DNA of 64,000 nt from a bacterium (GCA_049700315.1 JBNAVN010000003.1:8724-72723), one strand, 5' to 3'. Counted from the first letter of the stretch, positions 3,340-32,204 are shown. Made by a program: numbers and translations. The notes: generated by a model not told the origin, from the sequence alone.

Positions 3340-5271
3340 CTATCTTTCCCTCTTTGCCCACCAATTTTTTTCACCAAGTCCTTCAGTATAACATTTTCCT
3401 TCAATCCGTTCCCAGTCATCAAAAAGTTTACCTTTCAGGATAACTCTTTTCTTCTTCGTCGTCCAATAAAACACATTACGCTCCTTACAATTGACAGCAC
3501 CGTCTGCAAGAAAATCATCTTTTATCAAGAGCGCTGGAATTTCACCATTATAGGTAAGTTCTGCTGTTGGTTGATGCTGAAATTTCACTGTGAGTTGACC
3601 ATTCTTTTCTTTAATTGTCATTTTGAACGAGGCATTGTATGTAATACCATCTTCACCAATCTTGCCGATCCACGTACCAAGAGGGTTTTTCAAAACAATC
3701 ATTCCCAGATCAAGGGTCTCATGCTCACTCAAAGCAATATTGCGGGTGTAAACCTGGTATCCAGGAAAGACAATTTCAACTTTGTGTGGTGTTAAAAGAA
3801 TATTTCCTGAGACGTAGGGGGTCTTACCAACAAGCTCTCCATCAAGATAGACATTTGCACTTTCAGGTTCAGAATTAACCTGAAATACACCGTAAAGTGG
3901 AACAAGGCTTGCCCTGACCACAGCATTTCTACCAAACCCAATATTCACTCTTGTCTGCCATCTTTCGTACCCTGCTTTTTCAATCACAATCGTGTGCGAA
4001 CCCATAAACATTTTTGAAGATTCAAAAACACCTGCTTTCTTAGATTGAGTATCCAATTTTTTTCCATCAATGGAGACCAAGACATCGGTAGCAGGTTCAA
4101 CATAAATAACTATTTTGTTACGCACCAATGTCCATATCAGCAAAATGAAAATGACTATTGCAACCGCACCGATTGAAATGGATATTGTTTTCCTTATGAA
4201 ATTTTTGGTTGAGACCTCCACTTCTATTCTGGTTTTTTCTAACATTTCCTTATACTCAATTGCATCATGATCATACTCAACAGCCTTTTCAAAAAACAGA
4301 ACAGCATTTTTAGATTTTTTCTCTTTAAGATGTTTATCACCAATTTTATAGAAAATTGAAGCCAGTTTTCGCCGTGTCTCTTCATCAAAGCTTGTCACCT
4401 GCGATACTGGTATTCTGTTGATATAATATTCAGCACCTGATAGATCACCATTATCAAATTTCGCCAATGTCAAATAGCAGTTTATCGCACTCATCATTTC
4501 CTCCGAAATATTCTCTTTCACAAGCAAACTATTCAGAAATTCATCTGCCTTATCATATTCGCCATTATCATAATAGTACTTTCCAATCATAAAGCCCAAC
4601 TGAATATCATCAATTTTCATTTCCTCCATCTTCCTGTAATACTTTATCAATCTTTCCATATCATTCTGATCTGTGAAATATTGAACAATTTCTTTGATAA
4701 CCTCCACATTATCAGGAATTAGCGACTCCAGTTTCTGAAGTTCATGAAATGTCTTTTCTTTATCACCTTTTTGCTTGTACAGATTTTTCATTAACATATG
4801 GAACTCAACACTATCAGGTTTGATCTTAAGTATTTTTTCGCCGAGTGCTAGTGCTTCAATGATTTTATTTTGAAGATAATATACCCGGAAAAGTCCAATA
4901 AGTGGCTCCTCCGAATTAGGAGCAATATGTAAAGCAGAACGAAATGACTTTTCTGCATCATTGAGTTCATGGTTTTTGAGGTAAATCAAAGCAGATTTGT
5001 TGTGGGCATCAAAATTATTCGGGTCAATCCCTATTGCTATCTTATATTCATCAAGTGCTTCAAGTAGAAGACCATTTTTTTGATAAAGACCACCAAGTTC
5101 AATGCGGAGTTTTACATCCTTTGGGTCAGATTCAATTTTTTTTCGCAGAAGATTAATATGAGCAGAGGTTTCAGTCCTAAGGGTTATCAGAAATGTTCCA
5201 CATGCGCTACACATCTTGTATTTTTCCTTAATTGGTTTACCACAATGCGGACAATTATCCATAGTTACCAT
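3340..5271 (-). CDS. Zinc-ribbon, TPR-repeat and PEGA-domain membrane protein
   Basis: N-terminal CPHCG...CSACG zinc ribbon. Multiple TPR-like repeats. One TM helix (AVAIVIFILLIWTLV). Two C-terminal PEGA-like motifs (VNSEPESANVYLDGELVGKTP). Confidence 0.6.
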   Translation of the reverse strand: MVTMDNCPHCGKPIKEKYKMCSACGTFLITLRTETSAHINLLRKKIESDPKDVKLRIELGGLYQKNGLLLEALDEYKIAIGIDPNNFDAHNKSALIYLKNHELNDAEKSFRSALHIAPNSEEPLIGLFRVYYLQNKIIEALALGEKILKIKPDSVEFHMLMKNLYKQKGDKEKTFHELQKLESLIPDNVEVIKEIVQYFTDQNDMERLIKYYRKMEEMKIDDIQLGFMIGKYYYDNGEYDKADEFLNSLLVKENISEEMMSAINCYLTLAKFDNGDLSGAEYYINRIPVSQVTSFDEETRRKLASIFYKIGDKHLKEKKSKNAVLFFEKAVEYDHDAIEYKEMLEKTRIEVEVSTKNFIRKTISISIGAVAIVIFILLIWTLVRNKIVIYVEPATDVLVSIDGKKLDTQSKKAGVFESSKMFMGSHTIVIEKAGYERWQTRVNIGFGRNAVVRASLVPLYGVFQVNSEPESANVYLDGELVGKTPYVSGNILLTPHKVEIVFPGYQVYTRNIALSEHETLDLGMIVLKNPLGTWIGKIGEDGITYNASFKMTIKEKNGQLTVKFQHQPTAELTYNGEIPALLIKDDFLADGAVNCKERNVFYWTTKKKRVILKGKLFDDWERIEGKCYTEGLGEKNWWAKRER

Positions 5272-6239: not shown

Positions 6240-8678
6240 GTGAAGAAGTTTTTACTACTTGATGCACATTCTTTGATATTCCGTGCCTATTTTGCATTTA
6301 TCAAAAATCCACTCAGGAATTCCAAAGGGCAGAACACCTCAGGAATTTATGGCTTTTTGAATTCAATAAGAAAAATAAAAACAAAATTTGCAAGTGATTA
6401 TATAGTTCTTGCATTTGATGCCCCTGACGAAACCTTCAGAGACAGATTATTCAAAGAATACAAGGCAACCCGTCCAGCCCCACCAAGGGATATCCCATTT
6501 CAGATTGAAAAGGCAAAAGAGATCAGCAAGTTTTTAGGCATGGTAGACTTTGAAATTCCCGGTTTTGAAGCAGATGACATACTTGCAACCCTGACGAAAA
6601 AATTAAAAGATAATGGTGAGGTCTATATCGTGAGTTCTGACAAAGACCTTATGCAACTTATCTCTCAAAATGTCTTTGTTTATGATGCAGTCAATGACAT
6701 AATCTATGATGCAGAAAAGGTGAGAGAAAAATTTGGTGTCCTGCCTGATAGAATTGGAGATTATCTCGCACTCTGCGGTGATTCAATTGACAATGTTCCC
6801 GGTGTTCCTGGCATCGGTCCCCATAGAGCAATAGAAATCCTGAAAAAATATCCGGACCTTAATCAGGCACTGGAAAAAGAACCAAAACTTGCTGAGCACC
6901 GTGAGACCCTGATGTTATCAAGAAAACTCGTGGCACTGGAAACAGATATTCCAATTGAAATAAATCCTGAAGCATTGAAGGCAAAAACCCCGGATGTCAA
7001 AGGTATTTTTGAAATTCTGTCCGAACTTGAATTCCATTCTTTGATAAAAGAATTTGCTGAAAGATATAATACCGAAAGTATAATCAGAAAAACAGATATC
7101 TCAAAGGCAGAAATAAAAAAGTATGCAGGAATCCATGTTGACGAAGACAATTTCTTTGTGAGTTTCAATGAAAATGAAGTCTATGTCGCATCTATAGAAG
7201 ATTCATTCAATATTATTTCCAGACCAGATATAACAAAGATTGGCTACGACCTGAAACAGGTGATAAAAACTGGACATTTGATATCACCTTTATTTGATGT
7301 GAAGATTGCGGTCTGGCTTATTGACCCGAACATAAAGAATAATGAATTTGAAGATATCTGTTTGAAGTATTTGAATTGTTATTGTGCGCCAACACCCGAA
7401 GCAATTTCCACACTTTCTCTAAAGCTCTATCCTATTTTGCAAAAAAAACTTGAGGAACTTAATGAAGTTGATCTCTACCGAGAAATTGAAGAACCCCTCA
7501 TATTTGTCCTTGCGCAAATGGAGAAAAGAGGCATAGGCATTGATGTTAACTACTTGAAAGAATTGAAGAAGCATATTGAAAGGGATATTACGACACTGGC
7601 TGACGAGTGCTACAGGATTGCCGGCAGTGTATTCAATATCAATTCACCAAAGCAACTCGCTCATATTCTGTTTGAAAAACTCAGACTGACACCATTGAAA
7701 AAAGGGAAATCCCACTATTCAACAGATTTTGAAGTGCTCCAGCAATTGAGTTTGAAACATGAATTACCAAAAAAAATCCTTGAATATCGGGAACTGGCAA
7801 AAGTTTCAAGCACCTACATTGACCCTTTGATTGGATTTGCAAGAAACAACAGGATACATACAACCTTCAACCAGACCGGCACGGCTACAGGCAGATTATC
7901 TTCAAACAATCCCAATATCCAGAACATCCCCATCCGCAGTCGCCTGGGTAATGAACTGCGAAAGGCATTTGTAGCACAGAAAGGATTCATGCTTGTTTCA
8001 GCTGATTATTCCCAGATTGAATTGAGAATACTTGCCCATGTCTCAAAAGACAGAAATCTTATTGAAGCATTCAAATCCAGTCGTGATATCCACAATCACA
8101 CTGCCTCATTGATATTTGCTCTTAGCGAAGATGAAGTTGATGACGAAAAAAGGCGCATCGCCAAAGTTGTTAACTATGGGTTAATATATGGAATGAGTGA
8201 CTATGGACTTGCTCAGGAACTCGGAATTTCCGTTGAACAAGCAGGGCAATTCATACAGTCCTATTACGGTTTGTATCCTGAAGTTGATAAATGGCGGCTA
8301 TCAGCAATATCAAGTGTTGAGCAAAAAGGTTATACAGAGACACTCTTCAGCAGAAAAAGACCTATCCCTGAAATAAATTCTGAAAATTATAATCTCAGAG
8401 AATTTGCAAAAAGACTGGCAATCAATACACCAATCCAGGGGACCGCTGCGGATTTGATTAAGATGGCAATGATTGAGGTTGAAAAGAGATTAAACCAGGC
8501 ACATTTCAAAAGTGGACTTCTATTATCAATCCACGATGAGTTGTTGTTTGAAATAGAAGAAGAAAGAACTGATGAAGCAAGAGAAATCATAAAGAAGACA
8601 ATGGAAAATGTCTGTGAGTTCAATGTGCCGATTGTAGTAAATATTAATATCGGAAAAAACTGGGCAGAAGCCCATTGA
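6240..8678 (+). CDS. polA: DNA polymerase I
   Basis: N-terminal 5-prime nuclease domain (LLLDAHSLIFRAYFAF). C-terminal family A polymerase motifs (RRIAKVVNYGLIYG, DYSQIELR). 812 aa. GTG start 5 nt after a TATAAT. Confidence 0.9.
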   Translation: MKKFLLLDAHSLIFRAYFAFIKNPLRNSKGQNTSGIYGFLNSIRKIKTKFASDYIVLAFDAPDETFRDRLFKEYKATRPAPPRDIPFQIEKAKEISKFLGMVDFEIPGFEADDILATLTKKLKDNGEVYIVSSDKDLMQLISQNVFVYDAVNDIIYDAEKVREKFGVLPDRIGDYLALCGDSIDNVPGVPGIGPHRAIEILKKYPDLNQALEKEPKLAEHRETLMLSRKLVALETDIPIEINPEALKAKTPDVKGIFEILSELEFHSLIKEFAERYNTESIIRKTDISKAEIKKYAGIHVDEDNFFVSFNENEVYVASIEDSFNIISRPDITKIGYDLKQVIKTGHLISPLFDVKIAVWLIDPNIKNNEFEDICLKYLNCYCAPTPEAISTLSLKLYPILQKKLEELNEVDLYREIEEPLIFVLAQMEKRGIGIDVNYLKELKKHIERDITTLADECYRIAGSVFNINSPKQLAHILFEKLRLTPLKKGKSHYSTDFEVLQQLSLKHELPKKILEYRELAKVSSTYIDPLIGFARNNRIHTTFNQTGTATGRLSSNNPNIQNIPIRSRLGNELRKAFVAQKGFMLVSADYSQIELRILAHVSKDRNLIEAFKSSRDIHNHTASLIFALSEDEVDDEKRRIAKVVNYGLIYGMSDYGLAQELGISVEQAGQFIQSYYGLYPEVDKWRLSAISSVEQKGYTETLFSRKRPIPEINSENYNLREFAKRLAINTPIQGTAADLIKMAMIEVEKRLNQAHFKSGLLLSIHDELLFEIEEERTDEAREIIKKTMENVCEFNVPIVVNINIGKNWAEAH

Positions 8679-8721
8679 TTATCGCCCATTGATTCTTTGT
8701 CTATTTTGGATATAATAATTT

Positions 8722-8919
8722 GTGATCACCAGAGAAACGAAGGTTGAGAATATTCTCAGAGAATTTCCCGAGAAGATACCTATCTTTGTACAAATGGGTC
8801 TACCCTGCTTTGTCTGCGGTGAACGGTTCTGGGGCACAATTGAAGAATTGTGTCAGAGATATGATATTGAACCAGAAACATTATCAAAAGAATTGAACAG
8901 AATCAATAAAGGGGTGTGA
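8722..8919 (+). CDS. DUF1858-type small redox/disulfide domain protein (hybrid-cluster-protein-associated domain family)
   Basis: 65 aa with GLPCFVCG...ETLEELC core typical of DUF1858. GTG start 5 nt after a TATAAT. Confidence 0.5.
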   Translation: MITRETKVENILREFPEKIPIFVQMGLPCFVCGERFWGTIEELCQRYDIEPETLSKELNRINKGV

Positions 8920-9773
8920 ATATGCAAAAATGGTTATATTGTCCGGTCTGCAGAGGAAGTTTGGTGAAGAAACAATCAGTAATTCTTTGCAAAAAGTGTG
9001 GCTGGCAACATTATAAAAATCCTCTGCCTTCAGTTGCCGGATTTATAATGAATGCTGATGATGAGATATTATTGATCAAACGCGGTGCTGAACCAGAAAA
9101 AGGCAGATGGGCACTACCTTCGGGCTTTATTGAACCCAATGAAACACCAGAGCAGGCAGTATTGAGAGAATTGAAGGAAGAAACTGGGTTGAATGGCACG
9201 ATAAAAAAGATGCTCGGAATTTATGTTGAACCAACAAGGTTCTATGGAGATGTGCTTCTCATTGGTTATGAGATTGAAGGCACCGGTGGCAAGATCAGAC
9301 CCGGCTCAGATACCACAGAAGTCAATTTCTTTTCCAAAAACAAACTGCCAAGAATTCCATTTTTGAGCCATCGCGAAATCATCAATCAGGGAATCAATAG
9401 TCAAACAGATAATGTCTATGTTGAAGTCCTGAAATCAAAGATTTCTGAAGCAGTCATTACTGATACAATTCTCTTTTATAAGGGAAGTATGGGTATAGAT
9501 GCAAAAATTATGCGGTCAGCGCACATTAAGCCCGGAGAAAAGGTGCAGGTTTTAAATTATGATAATGGCGAAAGGCTTGAAACCTATGTTATCCCTGAAA
9601 AACCAGATTCAAGGAAGTTCATCCTTTATGGTCCGGCTTCATTAAAAGGTAAGAAGGGACAGAGATTATGCATACTCTCTTATGCATTTGTTGCCCAGAA
9701 TAAAGCAGAATTTTTTAAGCCGAGGATTGTCATCCTTGATACAAAAAATTTCATCAAAAAAATCAAATCCTAA
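8916..9773 (+). CDS. Fusion protein: zinc-ribbon NUDIX hydrolase (NudC-like) N-terminal domain plus aspartate 1-decarboxylase (PanD) C-terminal domain
   Basis: CPVCRG...CKKCGW zinc ribbon. Nudix box GRWALPSGFIEPNETPEQAVLRELKEETG. C-terminal 110 aa align with PanD, including the Gly-Ser self-processing site (YKGSMGID), NG.R..TY and GPASL regions. One continuous ORF, no internal start for the PanD part. Confidence 0.7.
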   Translation: MNMQKWLYCPVCRGSLVKKQSVILCKKCGWQHYKNPLPSVAGFIMNADDEILLIKRGAEPEKGRWALPSGFIEPNETPEQAVLRELKEETGLNGTIKKMLGIYVEPTRFYGDVLLIGYEIEGTGGKIRPGSDTTEVNFFSKNKLPRIPFLSHREIINQGINSQTDNVYVEVLKSKISEAVITDTILFYKGSMGIDAKIMRSAHIKPGEKVQVLNYDNGERLETYVIPEKPDSRKFILYGPASLKGKKGQRLCILSYAFVAQNKAEFFKPRIVILDTKNFIKKIKS

Positions 9774-10701
9774 AAAATTTATATATGGACCGGTCCCTTC
9801 GCGACGGCTGGGCTATTCATTAGGAATTGATTTACTCATTCCCAAGACCTGCACTTATAATTGTATTTACTGCCAGTTAGGAAAGACAACAAATCAGACA
9901 CTGAAGCGAAAAAAATATGTTCCATCAAGAATGATTTTGAAAGAACTGAGCCATTTGTTAAGAACAAAAACCCGCATTGATTATATCACATTTTCCGGTT
10001 CTGGTGAACCAACCCTGAGTTCAGATATTGGACTATTAATAAAGAAAATTAGACGACTCACAAAAATCCCTGTTGCAGTTATAACTAATTCTTCCTTAAT
10101 GCACAAAAAAGATGTCCAGAAAGGTCTATTAAGTGCGGATGTCATCCTGCCCACACTCACCACGGTTCAGGAAAAAACATTCAGAAAAATTCATCGGTCA
10201 ATCCCGGCGATAACTGCCAAAAAAATCGTTAATGGGTTGATTCGGTTTCGCAAATGTTACAAAGGGAAAATCTGGCTTGAGGTAATGCTTATCAAAGGGT
10301 TGAACGATTCAAAACAGGAAATTCAGGCATTAAAAAAGATAATAAGAAGAATCAAGCCTGATAGAATCCATCTAAATACTGTAGTAAGACCACCAAGTGA
10401 GAAATTTGCCCGACCCTTATCCATATCTGAACTGAAACGGATAAAGAAAATCATCGGAAGGAATTGCGAAATTGTAGCAGAATTCAAGAAACCAGGCAAT
10501 GTTTCAAAATTTAAAGACAATAATGAAATGGTCTTACAATATTTAAGACGAAGACCTGCAACCCTTATTGATATGAACAAAAGTCTGGGCATCAATCAAA
10601 GTGAATTGATAAAAAATCTTGAAAGACTCCTAAAATCCAGAAAAATCAAAAAGAAGAGATATGGAGGTAGAATTTTTTATGAAACAGTCAAAGATAGTTG
10701 A
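9682..10701 (+). CDS. Radical SAM protein (function unknown)
   Basis: CTYNCIYC (CxxxCxxC) cluster motif preceded by GPVPSRRLGYSLGIDL. True start likely near 9760-9775 (non-ATG), as the tracked ORF overlaps the upstream gene by 92 nt. Confidence 0.65.
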   Translation: MHLLPRIKQNFLSRGLSSLIQKISSKKSNPKKFIYGPVPSRRLGYSLGIDLLIPKTCTYNCIYCQLGKTTNQTLKRKKYVPSRMILKELSHLLRTKTRIDYITFSGSGEPTLSSDIGLLIKKIRRLTKIPVAVITNSSLMHKKDVQKGLLSADVILPTLTTVQEKTFRKIHRSIPAITAKKIVNGLIRFRKCYKGKIWLEVMLIKGLNDSKQEIQALKKIIRRIKPDRIHLNTVVRPPSEKFARPLSISELKRIKKIIGRNCEIVAEFKKPGNVSKFKDNNEMVLQYLRRRPATLIDMNKSLGINQSELIKNLERLLKSRKIKKKRYGGRIFYETVKDS

Positions 10702-11206
10702 ACCATATGATTTGTCAAAAGAGGAACTTCTGGAGTTTATTCCTGACCTTGCCAAAAACTGGCTTGCCCATGATGGACTCTGGTTTTTGTGTATTGAACA
10801 GAAATACGGTATTGAATCAGCAATTGAACTTGATAAAAAGGCGTGGGAAAAATTTACAGTAATTGAAGCAGAAAGAATAATGAAACGGCTGAATATAGAG
10901 CCCAATAGCGGTATTACAGGTTTGATTCAGGCGCTAAAATTCCGGCTGTATGCATTTATCAATAAGCAGGAAATTATTGAAATCTCTGACAAAAGATGTG
11001 TGTTGAGAATGAATAACTGCCGTGTGCAGGAAGCGAGAAAGCGCAAAGGTCTGCCTGATTTTCCCTGCAAGCCTGTTGGTATAGTGGAATATGCCTATTT
11101 TGCCCAAACCATTGATAGCCGTATTAAGACCAATTGTATTACCTGTCCCCCAGATTCCCATCCCGACGATTATTTCTGCGCCTGGGAGTTTGTACTTCAG
11201 GATTAA
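10661..11206 (+). CDS. Hypothetical protein with C-terminal Cys/His-rich motif
   Basis: 181 aa with WLAHDGLWF and CITCPPDSHPDDYFCAWE. Overlaps and is co-oriented with the radical SAM gene. Alternative start at 10679. Confidence 0.4.
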   Translation: MEVEFFMKQSKIVEPYDLSKEELLEFIPDLAKNWLAHDGLWFLCIEQKYGIESAIELDKKAWEKFTVIEAERIMKRLNIEPNSGITGLIQALKFRLYAFINKQEIIEISDKRCVLRMNNCRVQEARKRKGLPDFPCKPVGIVEYAYFAQTIDSRIKTNCITCPPDSHPDDYFCAWEFVLQD

Positions 11207-11209
11207 ATT

Positions 11210-11944
11210 TTATTTTTCCTTGATCTGTTCCAGAAGTTTTAATGCCTCTGGTTGGTCATCAAGTATATAATCTGCCACATAAGTAGGATTGTTTATTTCC
11301 AGGACTTTATTCAGATACCACCTTGCCTTTTCATATTCTCTTTTCTTGATGTATACCTTCGCCATATCCACATAAAGAATTGTATAATTTGAATCAATGG
11401 CAATTGCCTGATTCAAATATTCTATTGATTTATTCAGATTACCGCCCATCAGTTTTGGTAATTCGTAATAAAGCATAGCACAAGCATCCATGGCACCGGT
11501 ATGTTTGGGATCAAGTTTTAAGACAATATCAATTTCCTTTTTGATCTCGGGAACCAGACTGAGAGAATTGAGAACACCTTTTGTCTGTCCACTCCTTCCT
11601 AAGTTTACCATATACCAGAAGTGCGCCTGGGCACAGTCCTTGTCCAATGCCATTGCCCTTTTCCCATATTCCATGCCCCGGGTGTAGAAATTCAACTTCT
11701 CGTCCTTTTTTTCAGCATTGTCGCCCATAAGATAATTGATTCTGGAAAGTTCATAATTAGCCCGAAGGTTATCAGGCTCATCCTTAACAATATCAAGCAG
11801 TATCTCATAACTCTTCATTAAATTATCTTTGTTCAAATGTCTTGATTCGTATAAATCAATCGCCTCCTGTATCCTTATGTCTGAGTTCTGTGCAAACAGA
11901 AATACAAAACTTGACAATAATCCAATGTAGATTCTGTAGTTCAT
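11210..11944 (-). CDS. Secreted/lipoprotein TPR-repeat protein
   Basis: N-terminal signal-like hydrophobic segment. Several TPR-like repeats (AxxYxxLG patterns). Confidence 0.55.
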   Translation of the reverse strand: MNYRIYIGLLSSFVFLFAQNSDIRIQEAIDLYESRHLNKDNLMKSYEILLDIVKDEPDNLRANYELSRINYLMGDNAEKKDEKLNFYTRGMEYGKRAMALDKDCAQAHFWYMVNLGRSGQTKGVLNSLSLVPEIKKEIDIVLKLDPKHTGAMDACAMLYYELPKLMGGNLNKSIEYLNQAIAIDSNYTILYVDMAKVYIKKREYEKARWYLNKVLEINNPTYVADYILDDQPEALKLLEQIKEK

Positions 11945-23057: not shown

Positions 23058-23972
23058 TTAATAAACAACGACTTTAATACGCTGGGGCTTGATATAAACC
23101 GAGCTTAAGAATTCAGGCAGGATGATTTCTGGTGAAAGATCGTATTCACCACCTACAAGGTCCGTCGTCTTAATGCGCAATCCAATGTTTTCTTTTATCA
23201 AACCACTGACCTGGCTGCGCGCTCCCTGAACAATAAGCGTGTCTATGGATTGATTGGAAATCCAGATCTTCTGCCCGGCATTTTTCAAGATATTCACTGG
23301 AACATTTGTAAATATCCTCTGGTCTGATGTATCTATTACTACTCTTACTCTTAAATTTTCAGTTGAAAACTTGATCAAACTGGATACCGGATCAAGTTTA
23401 AGGGTTTTTTCAAAAGTTGCAGACTGATTTTTCACATCCAGGGATTCAACACTTACTTCATTCAATTTCTGCAAAATCTTCTTTGGTCCTGTTATCTGGA
23501 TAGTATCAAGCGATTCAATCGTTGATATTGAAAATCCATTTTTCAGAACTCCTTTGATCGGAATCAATGGCTTGACAGTTTTGCTAACTTTCTCATCAAC
23601 CTCAACATTGATAAATTTCGCACCATAATTTACCAACACATCCTCTAATGGCATTGCAAGATCCTTTGTAGAAATGACATTCTTCCCTGGCACTACCTCA
23701 GAAAGATTACACTCTGCTTCTGGTGGATTTGCCCAGATCCCGAAAAGCGCCTTTCCCTTACCACTAAACGAAATCTTCAATTTTGTTAATGAATCGGTGA
23801 TAATATAAGCCTCCGGCAGACTCGTATATTTGACTAAGATCTCCCGTTCATAACTATATCTGCCATCAATTGCGACAAATAGCCATAGTCCAAAGGCAAA
23901 TAATAATGCCAGAATCTTGCGTGCAGGTTCTAAGGTGAAAAATCCTAAAATTGATTTCAGGATTTTGAGCAT
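23058..23972 (-). CDS. YbbR-like domain protein (CdaR family)
   Basis: N-terminal TM anchor followed by repeated YbbR-like beta-rich segments. 304 aa. Confidence 0.55.
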   Translation of the reverse strand: MLKILKSILGFFTLEPARKILALLFAFGLWLFVAIDGRYSYEREILVKYTSLPEAYIITDSLTKLKISFSGKGKALFGIWANPPEAECNLSEVVPGKNVISTKDLAMPLEDVLVNYGAKFINVEVDEKVSKTVKPLIPIKGVLKNGFSISTIESLDTIQITGPKKILQKLNEVSVESLDVKNQSATFEKTLKLDPVSSLIKFSTENLRVRVVIDTSDQRIFTNVPVNILKNAGQKIWISNQSIDTLIVQGARSQVSGLIKENIGLRIKTTDLVGGEYDLSPEIILPEFLSSVYIKPQRIKVVVY

Positions 23973-24862
23973 AAGAATACCATTATGCCCTTTTGTATGT
24001 GCAAACGGTTTTCTGCCTGATCAAAAACAATTGAATGCGACCCATCAATCACCTCATCAGTAATCTCTTCTCCCCTATGTGCAGGAAGACAATGCATTAT
24101 TATGTAATCATCTTTCTTTGCATTTTTTAGCAGCATACTATTCAACTGAAAGGGCTTGAATATTTTCTTACGCTGCTCTGCCTCTGACTCCTGCCCCATT
24201 GATGCCCAGACATCAGTATAGATAACATCTGCATCCTTTACGGCCTCTGCTGGATTATCGGTTATTTTCACATTCTTTGCCTTCTTCAAATATTCCTTGT
24301 CTGGTTCATATCCATTGGGCGTGGCAATCTTCATAGGAAAACCGAGCAACGCTGATGCGGCTACAAAGGAATTACATACATTATTGCCATCGCCAACATA
24401 TGCCAGGGTAATCTTGTTCAAATCACCTTTTTTCTCAATCACAGTAAAAAGGTCGCAGAGTATCTGACATGGGTGTTCAAGATCACACAACCCATTTATC
24501 ACCGGTACACTTGCATTTTCAGCAAGCTCTTTGATATGATTATGGCTATACACCCTTGCCATAATCAAATCAACCCACCGTGAAAGGTTCTTTGCCACAT
24601 CCTTTACAGTTTCTCTTTTCCCTAATTGTATATCAGCAGGTGCAAGATATATGGCATGACCACCAAGCTGGGTCATACCAGTCTCAAATGTTACCCTGGT
24701 CCTCAATGATGGCTTTTCAAATATCATTGCCAGGGTTCTATCTTTCAAAATCTTGTGTTCAATTCCTTTTTTCTGTTTATCTTTCAGTTCCCGGGTAACA
24801 TCAAATATCTTATAGATTTCATCCCGGCTCAAATCAAAGATTGAAGTGAGGTCTCTTTTCAC
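23957..24862 (-). CDS. argF: Ornithine carbamoyltransferase
   Basis: SLRTRVTFE (STRTR motif), DVWASMG, HCLPAHRGEE motifs. 301 aa. Confidence 0.8.
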   Translation of the reverse strand: MKRDLTSIFDLSRDEIYKIFDVTRELKDKQKKGIEHKILKDRTLAMIFEKPSLRTRVTFETGMTQLGGHAIYLAPADIQLGKRETVKDVAKNLSRWVDLIMARVYSHNHIKELAENASVPVINGLCDLEHPCQILCDLFTVIEKKGDLNKITLAYVGDGNNVCNSFVAASALLGFPMKIATPNGYEPDKEYLKKAKNVKITDNPAEAVKDADVIYTDVWASMGQESEAEQRKKIFKPFQLNSMLLKNAKKDDYIIMHCLPAHRGEEITDEVIDGSHSIVFDQAENRLHIQKGIMVFLCSKS

Positions 24863-24931
24863 TTTTCTCCTCTTTTTGATTATTATATAGAATTTCGGAC
24901 AAAAATCAATAGAACAAGTTAAACCAACCCA

Positions 24932-32037: not shown

Positions 32038-32204
32038 TTCGTTCCCTGCGATGCTCGTGATGGGCATTAAGTCTTGAGCCAACACCCATCGTTTGGGAGC
32101 CAAGTTCGGCTACAGGTTTTCCTGTAGTTGACAGGCGCCCACTTTAACCCTGGGTTCAAAGACTTTTTCCCACACGGCATACGCGGGGAACTTTCTAAGA
32201 TTTT

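Follow-up and report, generated by a model that had tools for sequence, protein, structure and literature searches.

The window analyzed here, a 64-kb stretch of bacterial DNA, carries at 8722-11206 what its sequence indicates to be a genuine operon: four translationally coupled genes forming one transcription and translation unit. The operon is the form taken in WOR-3 by a gene neighborhood around one very widespread, uncharacterized radical SAM (rSAM) family of anaerobic bacteria and archaea. Judging by sequence, its rSAM enzyme fits no characterized family. The rSAM gene and the DUF6125 gene that follows it constitute the most constant element, or core, of the operon. With low confidence, we suggest that the operon encodes a pathway that tailors small molecules and may be connected with beta-alanine or CoA.

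Operon organization, promoter and conservation of the locus

The first-pass annotation had placed a co-directional four-gene operon in this region, and all four ORFs can be read on the plus strand, overlapping or abutting at tight junctions. Gene 1 (8722-8919, + strand, 65 aa) encodes a DUF1858 protein and ends with a TGA stop codon at 8917-8919. Gene 2 (8922-9773, + strand, 283 aa) encodes a Zn-ribbon-Nudix-PanD fusion. Its ORF is open from GTG 8916, so that the overlap with the gene 1 stop codon reads GTGA and not ATGA as previously described for 8916-8919. The likely start of gene 2 is ATG 8922, with AGGGG located 7 nt upstream; this start leaves a 2-nt gap between genes 1 and 2 and agrees with the NCBI gene call (P0241, 283 aa). 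Gene 3 (9736-10701, + strand) encodes the rSAM protein with its C-terminal winged helix and is called by NCBI at the same length of 321 aa (P0001). No in-frame ATG, GTG or TTG is found between TTG 9736 and the conserved YGPVPSRRLG motif of gene 3, which must therefore begin within gene 2 with an overlap of at least 38 nt. The sequence GAGGA is present 9 nt upstream of TTG 9736. Gene 4 (10679-11206, + strand, 175 aa, P0121), encoding DUF6125, starts at ATG 10679 and shares its first 23 nt with gene 3, in line with the overlap noted earlier for these two ORFs. No terminator-like site was found on the plus strand between 8722 and 11206. The locus has the marks of a bacterial operon: co-directional genes, minimal gaps, an order kept across genomes, one promoter for all four genes and no terminator inside.

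A predicted sigma-70-type promoter is located immediately upstream of gene 1 on the plus strand (8689-8716), consisting of a -35 element TTGATT (8689-8694), a 16-nt spacer and a -10 element TATAAT (8711-8716), with 10 of 12 consensus positions matched. The -10 element ends only 5 nt before the GTG start codon at 8722, so a leaderless or nearly leaderless mRNA is predicted. The exact sequence TTGATW-N16-TATAAT occurs twice in the window compared with 0.09 expected occurrences, and the perfectly spaced motif TTGAT[TA]-16 nt-TATAAT precedes the DUF1858 start codon by 5-10 nt in all 16 homologous loci inspected (16/16), which have different upstream genes. This conservation and the low chance rate per 64 kb support the leaderless-type promoter that had been suggested before gene 1. 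A conserved sigma-70-type promoter of its own thus probably drives the operon and yields a leaderless or near-leaderless mRNA, with the transcript start placed by conservation.

The order DUF1858, Nudix-PanD, rSAM and DUF6125, in some cases with a DUF89 gene before the rSAM gene, is kept in about 16 WOR-3 loci with differing flanking genes, in agreement with the single transcription and translation unit proposed earlier. Loci with like order and tight junctions are L001-L006, L009, L086, L088, L091, L093, L096, L099, L100 and L165-L168. Upstream genes vary among syntenic loci and include polA, PAC2, FmdE, RtcA and Por_Secre_tail; the gene order is maintained despite such differences in the flanks, at rSAM identities of 47-65%. 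Co-occurrence of the four families at other loci, a check that the first-pass annotation had called for, is thereby established. In some sister WOR-3 loci, a DUF89 phosphatase gene (PF01937) lies between the Nudix-PanD and rSAM genes, directly before the latter. DUF89 is present in 13 of 80 species-level rSAM loci, several times directly adjoining the rSAM gene on either side; it is absent from the four-gene operon and from the whole 64-kb window. The host of the operon is an uncultured WOR-3-type bacterium.

Beyond WOR-3, the rSAM gene is found directly upstream of the DUF6125 gene on the same strand in half of the DUF6125-centered metagenome loci with enough upstream DNA (30/60). This adjacency extends to Aminicenantes, where the upstream genes are different. 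Stand-alone PanD genes precede the rSAM ORF in two loci outside WOR-3, at a distance of 15 nt in L044 and of about 2 kb, within one co-directional cluster, in L036 (Latescibacterota). DUF6125 adjoins the rSAM gene in only 13 of 84 rSAM-centered loci, and 40 of 80 species-level loci show no recurrent rSAM neighbor at all, indicating that the rSAM enzyme must be able to function without DUF6125, PanD or Nudix. Other neighbors of the rSAM gene suggest metallocluster work (Mrp/MinD-Fer4 ATPases, NifX-like proteins, including N-terminal fusions, and NifU_N) or RNA modification (TrmO_N and QueF).

Domain composition of the encoded proteins

The gene 1 product matches PF08984 (DUF1858) with 36.1 bits (cut-off 32.2) and TIGR03980, the hybrid cluster protein-associated redox disulfide domain, with 46.4 bits (cut-off 44.95). 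Its GLPCxVCG (CxxC) motif is invariant across 13 homologous loci, placing the protein in this domain family at the motif level, and the domain weakly resembles ScdA_N. The Fe-S and redox chemistry earlier attributed to the operon is supported only by motifs, namely CX3CX2C in the rSAM enzyme and CxxC in DUF1858.

Gene 2 encodes a Zn ribbon (C7, C10, C23 and C26) that is invariant in the fusion family, followed by a Nudix hydrolase domain (approximately nt 9027-9347, + strand) and a PanD-type aspartate 1-decarboxylase domain (approximately nt 9420-9755, + strand). NCBI annotates the protein simply as aspartate 1-decarboxylase. The Nudix assignment is based on a PF00293 score of 72.6 bits (cut-off 21.1) and the Nudix box GFIEPNETPEQAVLRELKEETGL (pattern G-x5-E-x7-REUxEExGU), whose key residues are invariant. 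The protein scores 46.4 bits against the NudC equivalog NF001299, below the cut-off of 158, and neither the NudC nor the CoA-diphosphatase signature motif was seen by eye in the Nudix domain. The PanD part matches PF02261 (Asp_decarbox) with 109.7 bits (cut-off 25), and its best PDB match is Francisella PanD (3OUG, E 3e-24). In a BLASTP alignment to E. coli PanD, the equivalents of K9, Y22, G24-S25, R54, T57 and Y58 are invariant in 17 fusion proteins; the predicted Gly-Ser self-processing site is encoded at nt 9483-9488 (+ strand). The domain therefore has the double-psi barrel and the Gly24-Ser25, K9, R54, T57 and Y58 positions of PanD but not its Asn72, a position at which the fusion proteins invariably have Tyr, nor an equivalog-level score (86.6 bits against TIGR00223, cut-off 106).

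The gene 3 product belongs to the radical SAM superfamily, with 60.9 bits against PF04055 (cut-off 29.5), the CX3CX2C motif and, in its AF2 model (mean pLDDT 87), a core of the partial (beta/alpha)6 TIM-barrel type. The cluster motif C39-x3-C43-x2-C46 (nt 9850-9873, + strand) is invariant in 56 homologues. Its three cysteines are the only invariant ones in the family, so no ligands of an auxiliary cluster are evident; R23, R24, K37, R218, R272 and R273 are invariant as well. The N-terminal motifs quoted earlier, GPVPSRRLGYSLGI...CTYNCIYC, are present in the protein, as are an N-terminal hairpin YGPVPSRRLGxSLG and the further motifs SGSGEPT and LNTVVRPP. A winged-helix domain is predicted at the C-terminus (approximately nt 10519-10686, + strand), with weak matches to wHTH and Z-alpha nucleic-acid-binding domains. 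The protein has no sequence relative in the PDB. By profile, MoaA (E 5e-4) and viperins (E 1e-3) come nearest to it among solved enzymes, each as a weak match, while fold comparison of the model recovers PFL-AE, TYW1, NifB, viperin and RlmN at E 1e-10 to 1e-8. The best of these fold matches is PFL-AE (3c8f, E 1e-10, TM 0.69 on the target), followed by TYW1; NifB (E 1.6e-9) and RlmN also rank high.

The rSAM protein reaches no NCBIfam cut-off and so does not classify into a well-known housekeeping family. Identity as a viperin or pVip (NF038283 47 bits, cut-off 180; PADLOC pVip 47.5 bits) was rejected, as was identity as the GTP 3',8-cyclase MoaA (TIGR02666 41.3 bits, cut-off 284), the C-terminal auxiliary [4Fe-4S] cysteines of which are absent. 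The 4-demethylwyosine synthase TYW1 (TIGR03972 25.3 bits, cut-off 318) and RlmN and Cfr (model scores of 16-18 bits) were rejected likewise. A SPASM/twitch protein was also dismissed, there being no Pfam match to such a domain and the C-terminus being a predicted winged helix without conserved Cys. JGI names rSAM homologues 'wyosine [tRNA(Phe)-imidazoG37] synthetase', a label at the COG0731 level only. Some homologues carry an N-terminal PF02579 NifX-like domain (P0070, P0113). Far from the small subfamily initially supposed, this one is found in at least 598 GTDB species from many anaerobic phyla, with 7955 matches at E<=1e-5 among 8000 candidates scored, and its members are 40-65% identical between phyla.

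The gene 4 product matches PF19620 (DUF6125) over its full length with 281.9 bits (cut-off 27). DUF6125 proteins are 65-87% identical across phyla with approximately 60 invariant residues, including six Cys and two His. The Cys motif reported near the end of the last gene, CITCPPDSHPDDYFC, is present at nt 11135-11179. Based on similarity to solved members, DUF6125 is predicted to adopt a V4R/XylR-sensor/Bet3/H-NOX-like ligand-binding fold, and HNOB, V4R and ATC_hydrolase have been described as related families with a common Cys cluster (PMC5847659). Four of the invariant cysteines (C130, 11066-11068; C153, 11135-11137; C156, 11144-11146; C167, 11177-11179; + strand) form the pattern C130-x22-C153-x2-C156-x10-C167 compared with C149-x22-E172-x2-C175-x7-C183 in the XylR zinc site, and in both proteins the first site residue is located on a helix and the others on a beta-hairpin. 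In spacing and secondary structure, the Cys motif resembles the structural zinc site of the fold and may correspond to it, and the redox protein suggested by the earlier label 'Cys-rich protein' is not evident. C107 and C114 are the two further invariant cysteines. Some DUF6125 homologues also match PF14196 (ATC_hydrolase), and elsewhere DUF6125 is fused to SAM methyltransferases and to GGDEF-REC. At 12 of 44 DUF6125 loci lacking the rSAM gene, acyl-CoA dehydrogenase and enoyl-CoA hydratase genes or HGD-D and CCG genes are present; these acyl-CoA contexts may stem from two lineages only.

Proposed function and alternative explanations

As the best explanation of operon and enzyme together, we tentatively propose that the rSAM protein acts on a small metabolite, a reading that has a real prospect of being right but that we would not yet rely on. 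With one predicted [4Fe-4S] cluster, a core of PFL-AE size, many invariant Arg and Lys residues and a C-terminal winged helix, the rSAM enzyme would generate a 5'-deoxyadenosyl radical and with it alter a small metabolite that is probably phosphorylated or linked to a nucleotide. DUF6125 would be a V4R-type ligand binder held by a putative Cys4 zinc site and serve as substrate- or product-binding partner of the rSAM enzyme; the sequence constraint on DUF6125 exceeds the needs of a passive carrier and counts against this role. Trimming of this metabolite at its diphosphate or phosphate end would fall to the Nudix domain and, in loci that have it, to DUF89. With its pyruvoyl-forming and substrate-binding residues intact, the PanD domain may supply beta-alanine or decarboxylate an aspartyl moiety, and DUF1858 may provide thiol/disulfide or metal-handling support. 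The beta-alanine/pantetheine/CoA family is the only area known to have documented roles for PanD, Nudix hydrolases and DUF89 phosphatases alike. Because these roles meet there and DUF6125 is found among acyl-CoA enzymes elsewhere, we weakly favor a metabolite of this family. The absence by eye of NudC and CoA-diphosphatase signatures from the Nudix domain speaks against this proposal. The DUF89 family comprises metal-dependent phosphohydrolases (PMC9062747), and the DUF89 domain of PANK4 is reported to be linked to CoA (PMC9352595). Our literature search returned no substrate, product or activity for any member of the rSAM family or DUF6125.

Two alternatives would give the rSAM enzyme a metal cluster or RNA to work on. 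It is unlikely, in our estimate, that the enzyme is a pared-down maturase of the NifB/HydE type that acts on a metal cluster or on a ligand of one, with Cys-rich neighbors (DUF1858 and DUF6125; elsewhere DUF6485, NifU_N, NifX-like and Mrp/MinD-Fer4 proteins) serving as scaffolds or carriers. Mrp/MinD-type P-loop ATPases with Fer4 inserts and NifX-like genes near the rSAM gene (23 of 80 species loci), NifU_N (7 of 80), the NifX-like domain of some homologues, the NifB fold match, the ScdA_N-like, hybrid cluster protein-associated DUF1858 and the invariant Cys and His of DUF6125 all point in this direction. However, the enzyme lacks auxiliary cluster ligands, the operon contains no scaffold gene, four of the DUF6125 cysteines have the spacing and secondary-structure positions of a zinc site known from a ligand-binding fold, and cluster assembly has no place for PanD, Nudix and DUF89. 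Somewhat less likely still is a tRNA or rRNA modifying enzyme that binds RNA through its winged helix and basic residues and has loosely related neighbors. Broad distribution and no conserved context are typical of housekeeping modification enzymes, and the family is widespread with half of its loci devoid of conserved context. The COG0731/wyosine synthetase label, the TYW1 and RlmN fold matches, the wHTH/Z-alpha resemblance of the C-terminal domain, the six invariant Arg and Lys residues and the recurrence of TrmO_N and QueF in some lineages are also consistent with RNA modification. Set against this are the far lower TYW1 and RlmN/Cfr model scores, the missing auxiliary cluster cysteines and the tight translational coupling, in several phyla, of the rSAM gene to PanD, Nudix, DUF89, MBL-fold and ligand-binding protein genes.

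The remaining alternatives are progressively more improbable. Modification of a small Cys-containing neighbor (DUF1858 or DUF6125; elsewhere DUF6485 or Zn-ribbon proteins) has little probability. PFL-AE, the closest fold match with an equally compact core, acts on a protein loop, small Cys-rich genes (DUF1858, DUF6485, Zn_ribbon_8) precede the rSAM gene in several lineages, and the winged helix could be the recognition element, given that winged-helix domains are peptide-recognition elements in RiPP enzymes. Yet the small neighbors come from unrelated families without a visible common target motif, half of the rSAM loci lack them, DUF6125 (175 aa) is a folded domain rather than a peptide, and the enzyme has no SPASM/twitch domain. 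A chance packing of unrelated housekeeping genes (PanD for CoA, Nudix 'house-cleaning', rSAM and a DUF) without common function would fit a compact genome in which neighboring genes also abut, the uniform base composition across the region and the NCBI label of gene 2. The synteny data largely refute this reading, which we consider very improbable: gene order persists despite changing flanks, the promoter is conserved in all 16 loci and rSAM-DUF6125 and rSAM-PanD adjacency recurs in other phyla. Anti-phage defense by a viperin-like enzyme making a modified nucleotide with a Nudix partner would be most surprising. Prokaryotic viperin models give the rSAM protein its best NCBIfam and PADLOC matches, over nearly the full length, and the Nudix part of gene 2 matches the PADLOC candidate PDC-S07, but the viperin score, far below the curated cut-off, essentially excludes this function. 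The high conservation of the family between phyla, its stable chromosomal contexts without mobile-element or defense neighbors and the unexceptional base composition of the region likewise argue against defense.

Comparison with known systems

The rSAM enzyme shares the CX3CX2C motif and partial TIM-barrel core with MoaA and viperin, which are its best partial NCBIfam and PADLOC matches and act on GTP or CTP; the Nudix/phosphatase association of the rSAM gene would fit a nucleotide substrate. In contrast to these enzymes, it scores far under their cut-offs (41 vs 284; 47 vs 180), lacks MoaA-type auxiliary cluster cysteines and has its own YGPVPSRRLG hairpin, LNTVVRPP motif and C-terminal winged helix. 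PFL-AE is similar in fold and core size, and NifB resembles some rSAM homologues in carrying a NifX-like domain, but identity to either is only 13-16%. No glycyl-radical enzyme gene is located near gene 3 and ligands for NifB-type K clusters are missing, while the NifX-like domain is N-terminal, restricted to few homologues and absent from gene 3.

The PanD domain resembles PanD in its PF02261 match, Gly-Ser processing site and K9, Y22, R54, T57 and Y58 equivalents. It differs in being fused behind a Zn-ribbon Nudix hydrolase, in being embedded in an rSAM operon and not among pan genes, and in its sub-threshold TIGR00223 score and N72 to Tyr exchange. As in NudC-like Zn-ribbon Nudix hydrolases (PDB 3CNG), the C4 zinc ribbon directly precedes a complete Nudix box, and the alignment to E. 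coli NudC covers both ribbon and Nudix fold; in our own reading of the sequence, the NudC signature after the box and the CoA-diphosphatase signature before it are lacking. DUF89/ARMT1 damage-control phosphatases, such as the PANK4 C-terminal domain, are represented by PF01937 genes adjoining or near the rSAM gene in WOR-3 and other phyla, whereas the four-gene operon described here does without one. Finally, the DUF6125 Cys pattern resembles, in spacing and secondary structure, the zinc site of the XylR/DmpR/PoxR/MopR sensors, although identity to V4R and sensor-fold proteins is approximately 10-15%. Instead of Cys3-Glu, the putative DUF6125 site contains four cysteines, accompanied by two extra invariant ones. 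Unlike these sensors, DUF6125 is a stand-alone 175-aa protein, is unusually conserved and is coupled to an rSAM enzyme instead of a sigma-54 activator.

Organization and conservation of the four-gene operon

The operon consists of four forward-strand open reading frames at 8722-11206 of the window. Gene 1 (8722-8919, +; 65 aa, GTG start) exceeds the curated cut-offs of both DUF1858 and TIGR03980, the 'hybrid cluster protein-associated redox disulfide domain'. Gene 2 (+) encodes a 283 aa fusion of an N-terminal C4 zinc ribbon, a Nudix domain (NUDIX, 72.6 bits) and a PanD domain (Asp_decarbox/PanD, 109.7 bits), followed by the radical SAM enzyme of gene 3 (+; PF04055, 60.9 bits; 321 aa as protein P0001) and a full-length DUF6125 protein encoded by gene 4 (ATG at 10679, +; 175 aa, 281.9 bits). 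The first-pass annotation had described an ATGA overlap between genes 1 and 2, where the sequence in fact reads GTGA: the stop codon of gene 1 occupies 8917-8919 and the frame of gene 2 is open from a GTG at 8916. The likely start of gene 2 is the ATG at 8922, which lies behind an AGGGG Shine-Dalgarno sequence and is also the start used by NCBI (P0241). Gene 3 possesses no canonical in-frame start between a TTG at 9736 and its conserved N-terminal motif and must therefore begin within gene 2, the two genes sharing at least 38 nt; an SD-like GAGGA is found 9 nt upstream of the TTG. Gene 4 (protein P0121) overlaps gene 3 by 23 nt. The upstream polA gene ends at 8678, leaving an intergenic space of only 43 nt, and a convergent TPR gene (11210-11944, -) lies 3 nt downstream of gene 4. 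No forward-strand terminator-like sites were found within 8722-11206. A short hairpin at 8661-8674 (5 bp, 4 GC), in the last nucleotides of polA and immediately before the operon -35 element, scans as terminator-like on both strands but has a poor T tract.

A programmed frameshift fusing PanD to the radical SAM enzyme at the A-rich overlap 9748-9778 was considered and rejected. The radical SAM frame is +1 relative to PanD, and a -1 slip, the kind usually seen at sites like this, would lead into the other frame; GAGGA and TTG 9736 already provide a normal start, and sister loci carry a 1 nt overlap or an intervening DUF89 gene at this junction. A horizontal-transfer island was likewise rejected, as base composition is uniform (34-41% GC) and ARAGORN detects no tRNA genes in the whole 64 kb window. 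When the window and seven homologous loci were scanned against Rfam, neither a riboswitch nor any other known RNA element turned up ahead of the operon. The sole gathering-level match in the window is a 6S RNA far from the operon (32040-32193, +; RF00013, 80.4 bits; gathering score 46.4).

The gene neighbourhood was approached from three independent starting points. The order DUF1858, Nudix-PanD, radical SAM, DUF6125 is found in homologous loci L001-L006 and L009 when starting from the radical SAM enzyme, in L086, L088, L091, L093, L096, L099 and L100 when starting from DUF6125, and for all three fusion proteins looked up (L165-L168). Upstream flanks vary (polA, PAC2, FmdE, RtcA or a Por_Secre_tail protein), while a TPR or a convergent MGMT-like gene lies downstream. 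The earlier proposal that the four genes form one unit holds, since order and tight junctions (overlaps of 1-35 nt) persist while the flanks change and radical SAM identity to the window drops to 47-55%. Several loci have a gene for a DUF89/ARMT1 phosphatase between PanD and the radical SAM gene, with an 11 nt overlap into the latter; tblastn returned no DUF89 match anywhere in the window. That the operon is conserved, promoter-equipped and translationally coupled is firmly supported.

Many WOR-3 loci carry a convergent PF01035 gene (methylated-DNA-protein-cysteine methyltransferase-like) after DUF6125, all on the reverse strand (L003 6455-7018, L004 6452-7048, L165 6360-6854, L166 6359-6913 and L168 7127-7660), its place being taken by a TPR gene in the window and L001. 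The annotated gene in L004, a locus of the complete WOR-3 genome CP070664.1, covers PanD alone (133 aa, 4491-4892), and tblastn locates the Nudix half just upstream (4026-4511, 52% identity). The stretch 4026-4892 may hold a fusion that is split or frameshifted, or its appearance may be an artefact of gene calling.

The promoter preceding gene 1 consists of TTGATT (8689-8694, +), a 16 nt spacer and TATAAT (8711-8716, +) ending 5 nt before GTG 8722. Promoter-like sites are not enriched overall in this AT-rich region (12 versus 9.4 ± 3.5 in shuffles). The pattern TTGAT[TA], exactly 16 nt, TATAAT is found in 16 of 16 distinct loci, its last base 5-10 nt ahead of the start codon of DUF1858, and none of the 16 has a Shine-Dalgarno sequence between the -10 element and that codon; in the 64 kb window TTGATW-N16-TATAAT occurs only twice versus 0.09 times expected. 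This conservation and rarity are strong comparative evidence for a dedicated promoter and support the leaderless-type promoter noted on first inspection; the predicted mRNA would be leaderless or nearly so. The second match in the window (24882-24909, -) is separated by 19 nt from the GTG start codon of a downstream 301 aa ORF (23957-24862, -), which, judging by its sequence, we take to resemble ornithine carbamoyltransferase.

The radical SAM enzyme and DUF6125

Alignments A1 and A3 of the radical SAM family show invariant YGPVPSRRLGxSLGxD, K37, C39-x3-C43-x2-C46-Q-L-G, SGSGEPT and LNTVVRPP motifs and, where the last domain begins, an invariant RRP. The only invariant cysteines are the three cluster ligands, making an auxiliary Fe-S cluster unlikely as judged from conservation. 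In the AF2 model (mean pLDDT 87) a compact partial TIM barrel is flanked by a beta-hairpin at the N-terminus and a winged helix at the C-terminus. Foldseek returns generic relatives alone at 13-18% identity, PFL-AE being the best followed by TYW1, NifB, viperins and RlmN. Single-sequence searches found no relatives in the PDB; profile searches of PDB sequences gave weak matches of the core to MoaA (5e-4) and viperins (1e-3) and of the tail to wHTH and Z-alpha domains.

The enzyme falls below every NCBIfam family cut-off, the best partial match being prokaryotic viperin (47 bits versus 180); it is thus not placed in a well-known housekeeping family, an outcome that would have counted against the earlier proposal. 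None of the models for TYW1, MoaA, PFL-AE, QueE, lipoyl synthase, Cfr/RlmN and HxsC comes near its cut-off, and the COG0731 name 'wyosine synthetase' used by JGI is a label (TYW1 model, 25 bits versus 318). The family was initially described as a small uncharacterised subfamily. Uncharacterised it is, with no structure, curated model or paper found; small it is not, as two family-specific peptide patterns place it in at least 598 species-representative genomes. A protein search yielded 7955 matches at E ≤ 1e-5 among 8000 candidates scored, and the best 120 are all full-length with at least 47% identity. Carriers include WOR-3, Aminicenantes, Latescibacterota, Planctomycetota, Thermodesulfobacteriota/Syntrophales, Ignavibacteria, Armatimonadota, Spirochaetota, Actinomycetota, Methanocellales and Methanosarcinales, and the family, whose members fall into more than 15 phylum-level groups, forms thousands of sequence clusters, with bacterial and archaeal members sharing 40-65% identity. 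A few homologues carry an N-terminally fused NifX-like domain (PF02579; P0070, P0113). Our literature search found no paper on this family, COG0731, DUF6125 or the cluster, and mentions of DUF1858 are confined to lists, among them one as a selenoprotein family.

DUF6125 accompanies the radical SAM enzyme beyond WOR-3. Of the 60 metagenome loci in which 1.2 kb or more of sequence precedes DUF6125, 30 encode the radical SAM enzyme immediately upstream on the same strand. In Aminicenantes (L094-L137, e.g. L094 3802-4005 and L095 3246-3728), NifU_N and a Cys-rich 67 aa DUF6485 protein precede the pair in place of DUF1858 and Nudix-PanD, and a SAM methyltransferase, an IlvE-like aminotransferase and TrmO_N follow it. 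The radical SAM-DUF6125 pair as core module is firmly supported. DUF6125 proteins of WOR-3, Aminicenantes and WOR-1 share 65-87% identity with about 60 invariant positions, including six cysteines and two histidines, and the family comprises 1104 representatives at 50% clustering.

Searches of the PDB found no direct sequence relatives of DUF6125. Its AF2 model (mean pLDDT 93) matches several solved structures, with Foldseek in agreement, and some family members also match PF14196 (ATC_hydrolase). HNOB, V4R and ATC_hydrolase have been described as related families with a common cysteine cluster (PMC5847659). In XylR, PoxR, MopR and DmpR a structural zinc is held by a helix cysteine and the Glu-x2-Cys...Cys of the following hairpin (C149, E172, C175 and C183 in XylR). 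In DUF6125, C130 opens helix 130-145 while C153, C156 and C167 lie on strands 149-155 and 167-173, and the x22 and x2 spacings equal those of the XylR-type site. Because spacing and secondary structure match, the CITCPPDSHPDDYFC motif noted at the end of gene 4 is most simply predicted to be a Cys4 version of this structural metal site; C107 and C114 fall outside the four-cysteine match. The only DUF6125 fusions found are to further copies of itself in tandem, to SAM methyltransferases (P0370, P0389) and to one GGDEF-REC protein (P0457), a pattern that fits a ligand-binding module without naming a ligand. The methyltransferases are of class I and sit on either side, GGDEF-REC lies ahead of DUF6125, and P0361 is also listed among the fusion homologues. 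Twelve of the 44 DUF6125 loci lacking an adjoining radical SAM gene contain either an acyl-CoA dehydrogenase with an enoyl-CoA hydratase or a 2-hydroxyglutaryl-CoA (2-hydroxyacyl-CoA) dehydratase D-component with CCG-domain proteins (L109, L122, L125, L128, L143, L151; L117, L126, L134, L146, L147, L155), contexts that may come from two lineages only.

The Nudix-PanD fusion and neighbours in other phyla

Both domains are present in all of the 120 best fusion homologues, and every named taxon among these is WOR-3. Invariant residues include the zinc ribbon cysteines C7, C10, C23 and C26, the Nudix box and the equivalents of PanD K9, Y22, G24-S25, R54, T57 and Y58, while the position of PanD N72 is an invariant tyrosine. 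In the PDB the PanD half is matched best by Francisella PanD (3e-24), and the Nudix half aligns with 3CNG and, ribbon included, with NudC. Based on these conserved residues and PDB matches, both halves look catalytically competent. As we read the sequence, the Nudix half carries neither the NudC nor the CoA-diphosphatase signature.

Recurrent co-directional neighbours were identified by ORF clustering and Pfam in 80 species-level radical SAM loci. Mrp/MinD-type ATPases with Fer4 inserts plus NifX-like proteins are the most frequent (23 of 80), followed by MBL-fold proteins (15), DUF89 (13, in several directly adjoining the radical SAM gene on either side), DUF5320 (12), DUF6125 and NifU_N (7 each) and PanD/Nudix, TrmO_N, SAM methyltransferase and Zn_ribbon_8 (6 each); 40 of the 80 loci have none of them. 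Two non-WOR-3 loci encode a stand-alone, classical-looking PanD (120 aa, 41-42% identical to the window PanD domain), located 15 nt upstream of the radical SAM ORF in L044 and about 2 kb upstream in L036 (Latescibacterota). Both belong to long co-directional clusters with DUF5320, two Mrp genes, PanD and the radical SAM gene, to which L036 adds MBL-fold, methyltransferase and DUF89 genes. The PanD link is therefore no WOR-3 accident, and the recurrent association of the radical SAM gene with PanD and DUF89 is firmly supported. Long co-directional clusters in other phyla (L036 299-7778, L044 387-6924, L024, L041, L045 and L051) contain DUF5320, two Mrp/MinD-Fer4 ATPases, NifX-like, MBL-fold, SAM methyltransferase and DUF89 genes and sometimes a stand-alone PanD. 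The window operon looks like a reduced version of this cross-phylum neighbourhood.

Possible functions and relation to known systems

The gene set suggests a scheme in which the radical SAM enzyme would modify a small molecule, probably phosphorylated or nucleotide-linked and held by DUF6125. Nudix and DUF89 would trim phosphates, PanD would supply beta-alanine or decarboxylate an aspartyl group and DUF1858 may back thiol or metal chemistry. Our guess is a metabolite of the beta-alanine, pantetheine or CoA type, favoured because this is the one known area with precedents for PanD, Nudix and DUF89 (PMC9062747; PMC9352595), and because it fits the acyl-CoA contexts of DUF6125. More broadly, and tentatively, the operon may be one face of an unrecognised pathway, widespread among anaerobic bacteria and archaea, in which the GPVPSRRLG radical SAM enzyme makes or repairs a small molecule or cofactor, a reading we consider possible though rather doubtful. 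DUF6125, DUF89, MBL-fold, Mrp/MinD-Fer4, NifX-like, DUF5320, PanD, Nudix and SAM methyltransferase proteins would then be variable accessories, the WOR-3 version would involve beta-alanine and nucleotide-diphosphate chemistry, for example yielding a modified pantetheine or CoA-type compound, and the radical SAM enzyme and DUF6125 would constitute a new two-component radical enzyme with a V4R-type protein presenting the substrate.

The context in other phyla points just as much to metallocluster handling, given the Mrp, NifX and NifU neighbours, and RNA modification is suggested less strongly by TrmO_N and QueF neighbours and the winged helix of the radical SAM enzyme; both are kept as rival readings. 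Anti-phage defence is largely excluded, pVip and PADLOC searches giving weak generic matches only. A chance assembly of four genes without common function is largely excluded too, as their order and promoter are kept across loci. A pantetheine- or CoA-linked function, if true, would point to unrecognised cofactor chemistry in anaerobes, and a metallocluster or RNA role, if borne out, would still assign a function to a major orphan radical SAM family.

For this radical SAM subfamily, DUF6125 and the cluster alike, our searches turned up neither a curated functional model nor a solved structure or a paper. The radical SAM family is large, strongly conserved and orphan, and DUF6125 is even more conserved and as little studied. 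The WOR-3 operon provides the clearest and most compact context yet for both, and its fixed partners, the tying of beta-alanine formation to a Nudix hydrolase by fusion and the conserved leaderless-type promoter make it a testable system. Since every protein of the operon belongs to a known Pfam family, nothing is categorically new at the fold level; we class the operon as radical SAM-centred and of biosynthetic type with an unusual set of partners, one that merits experiments but does not come as a surprise.
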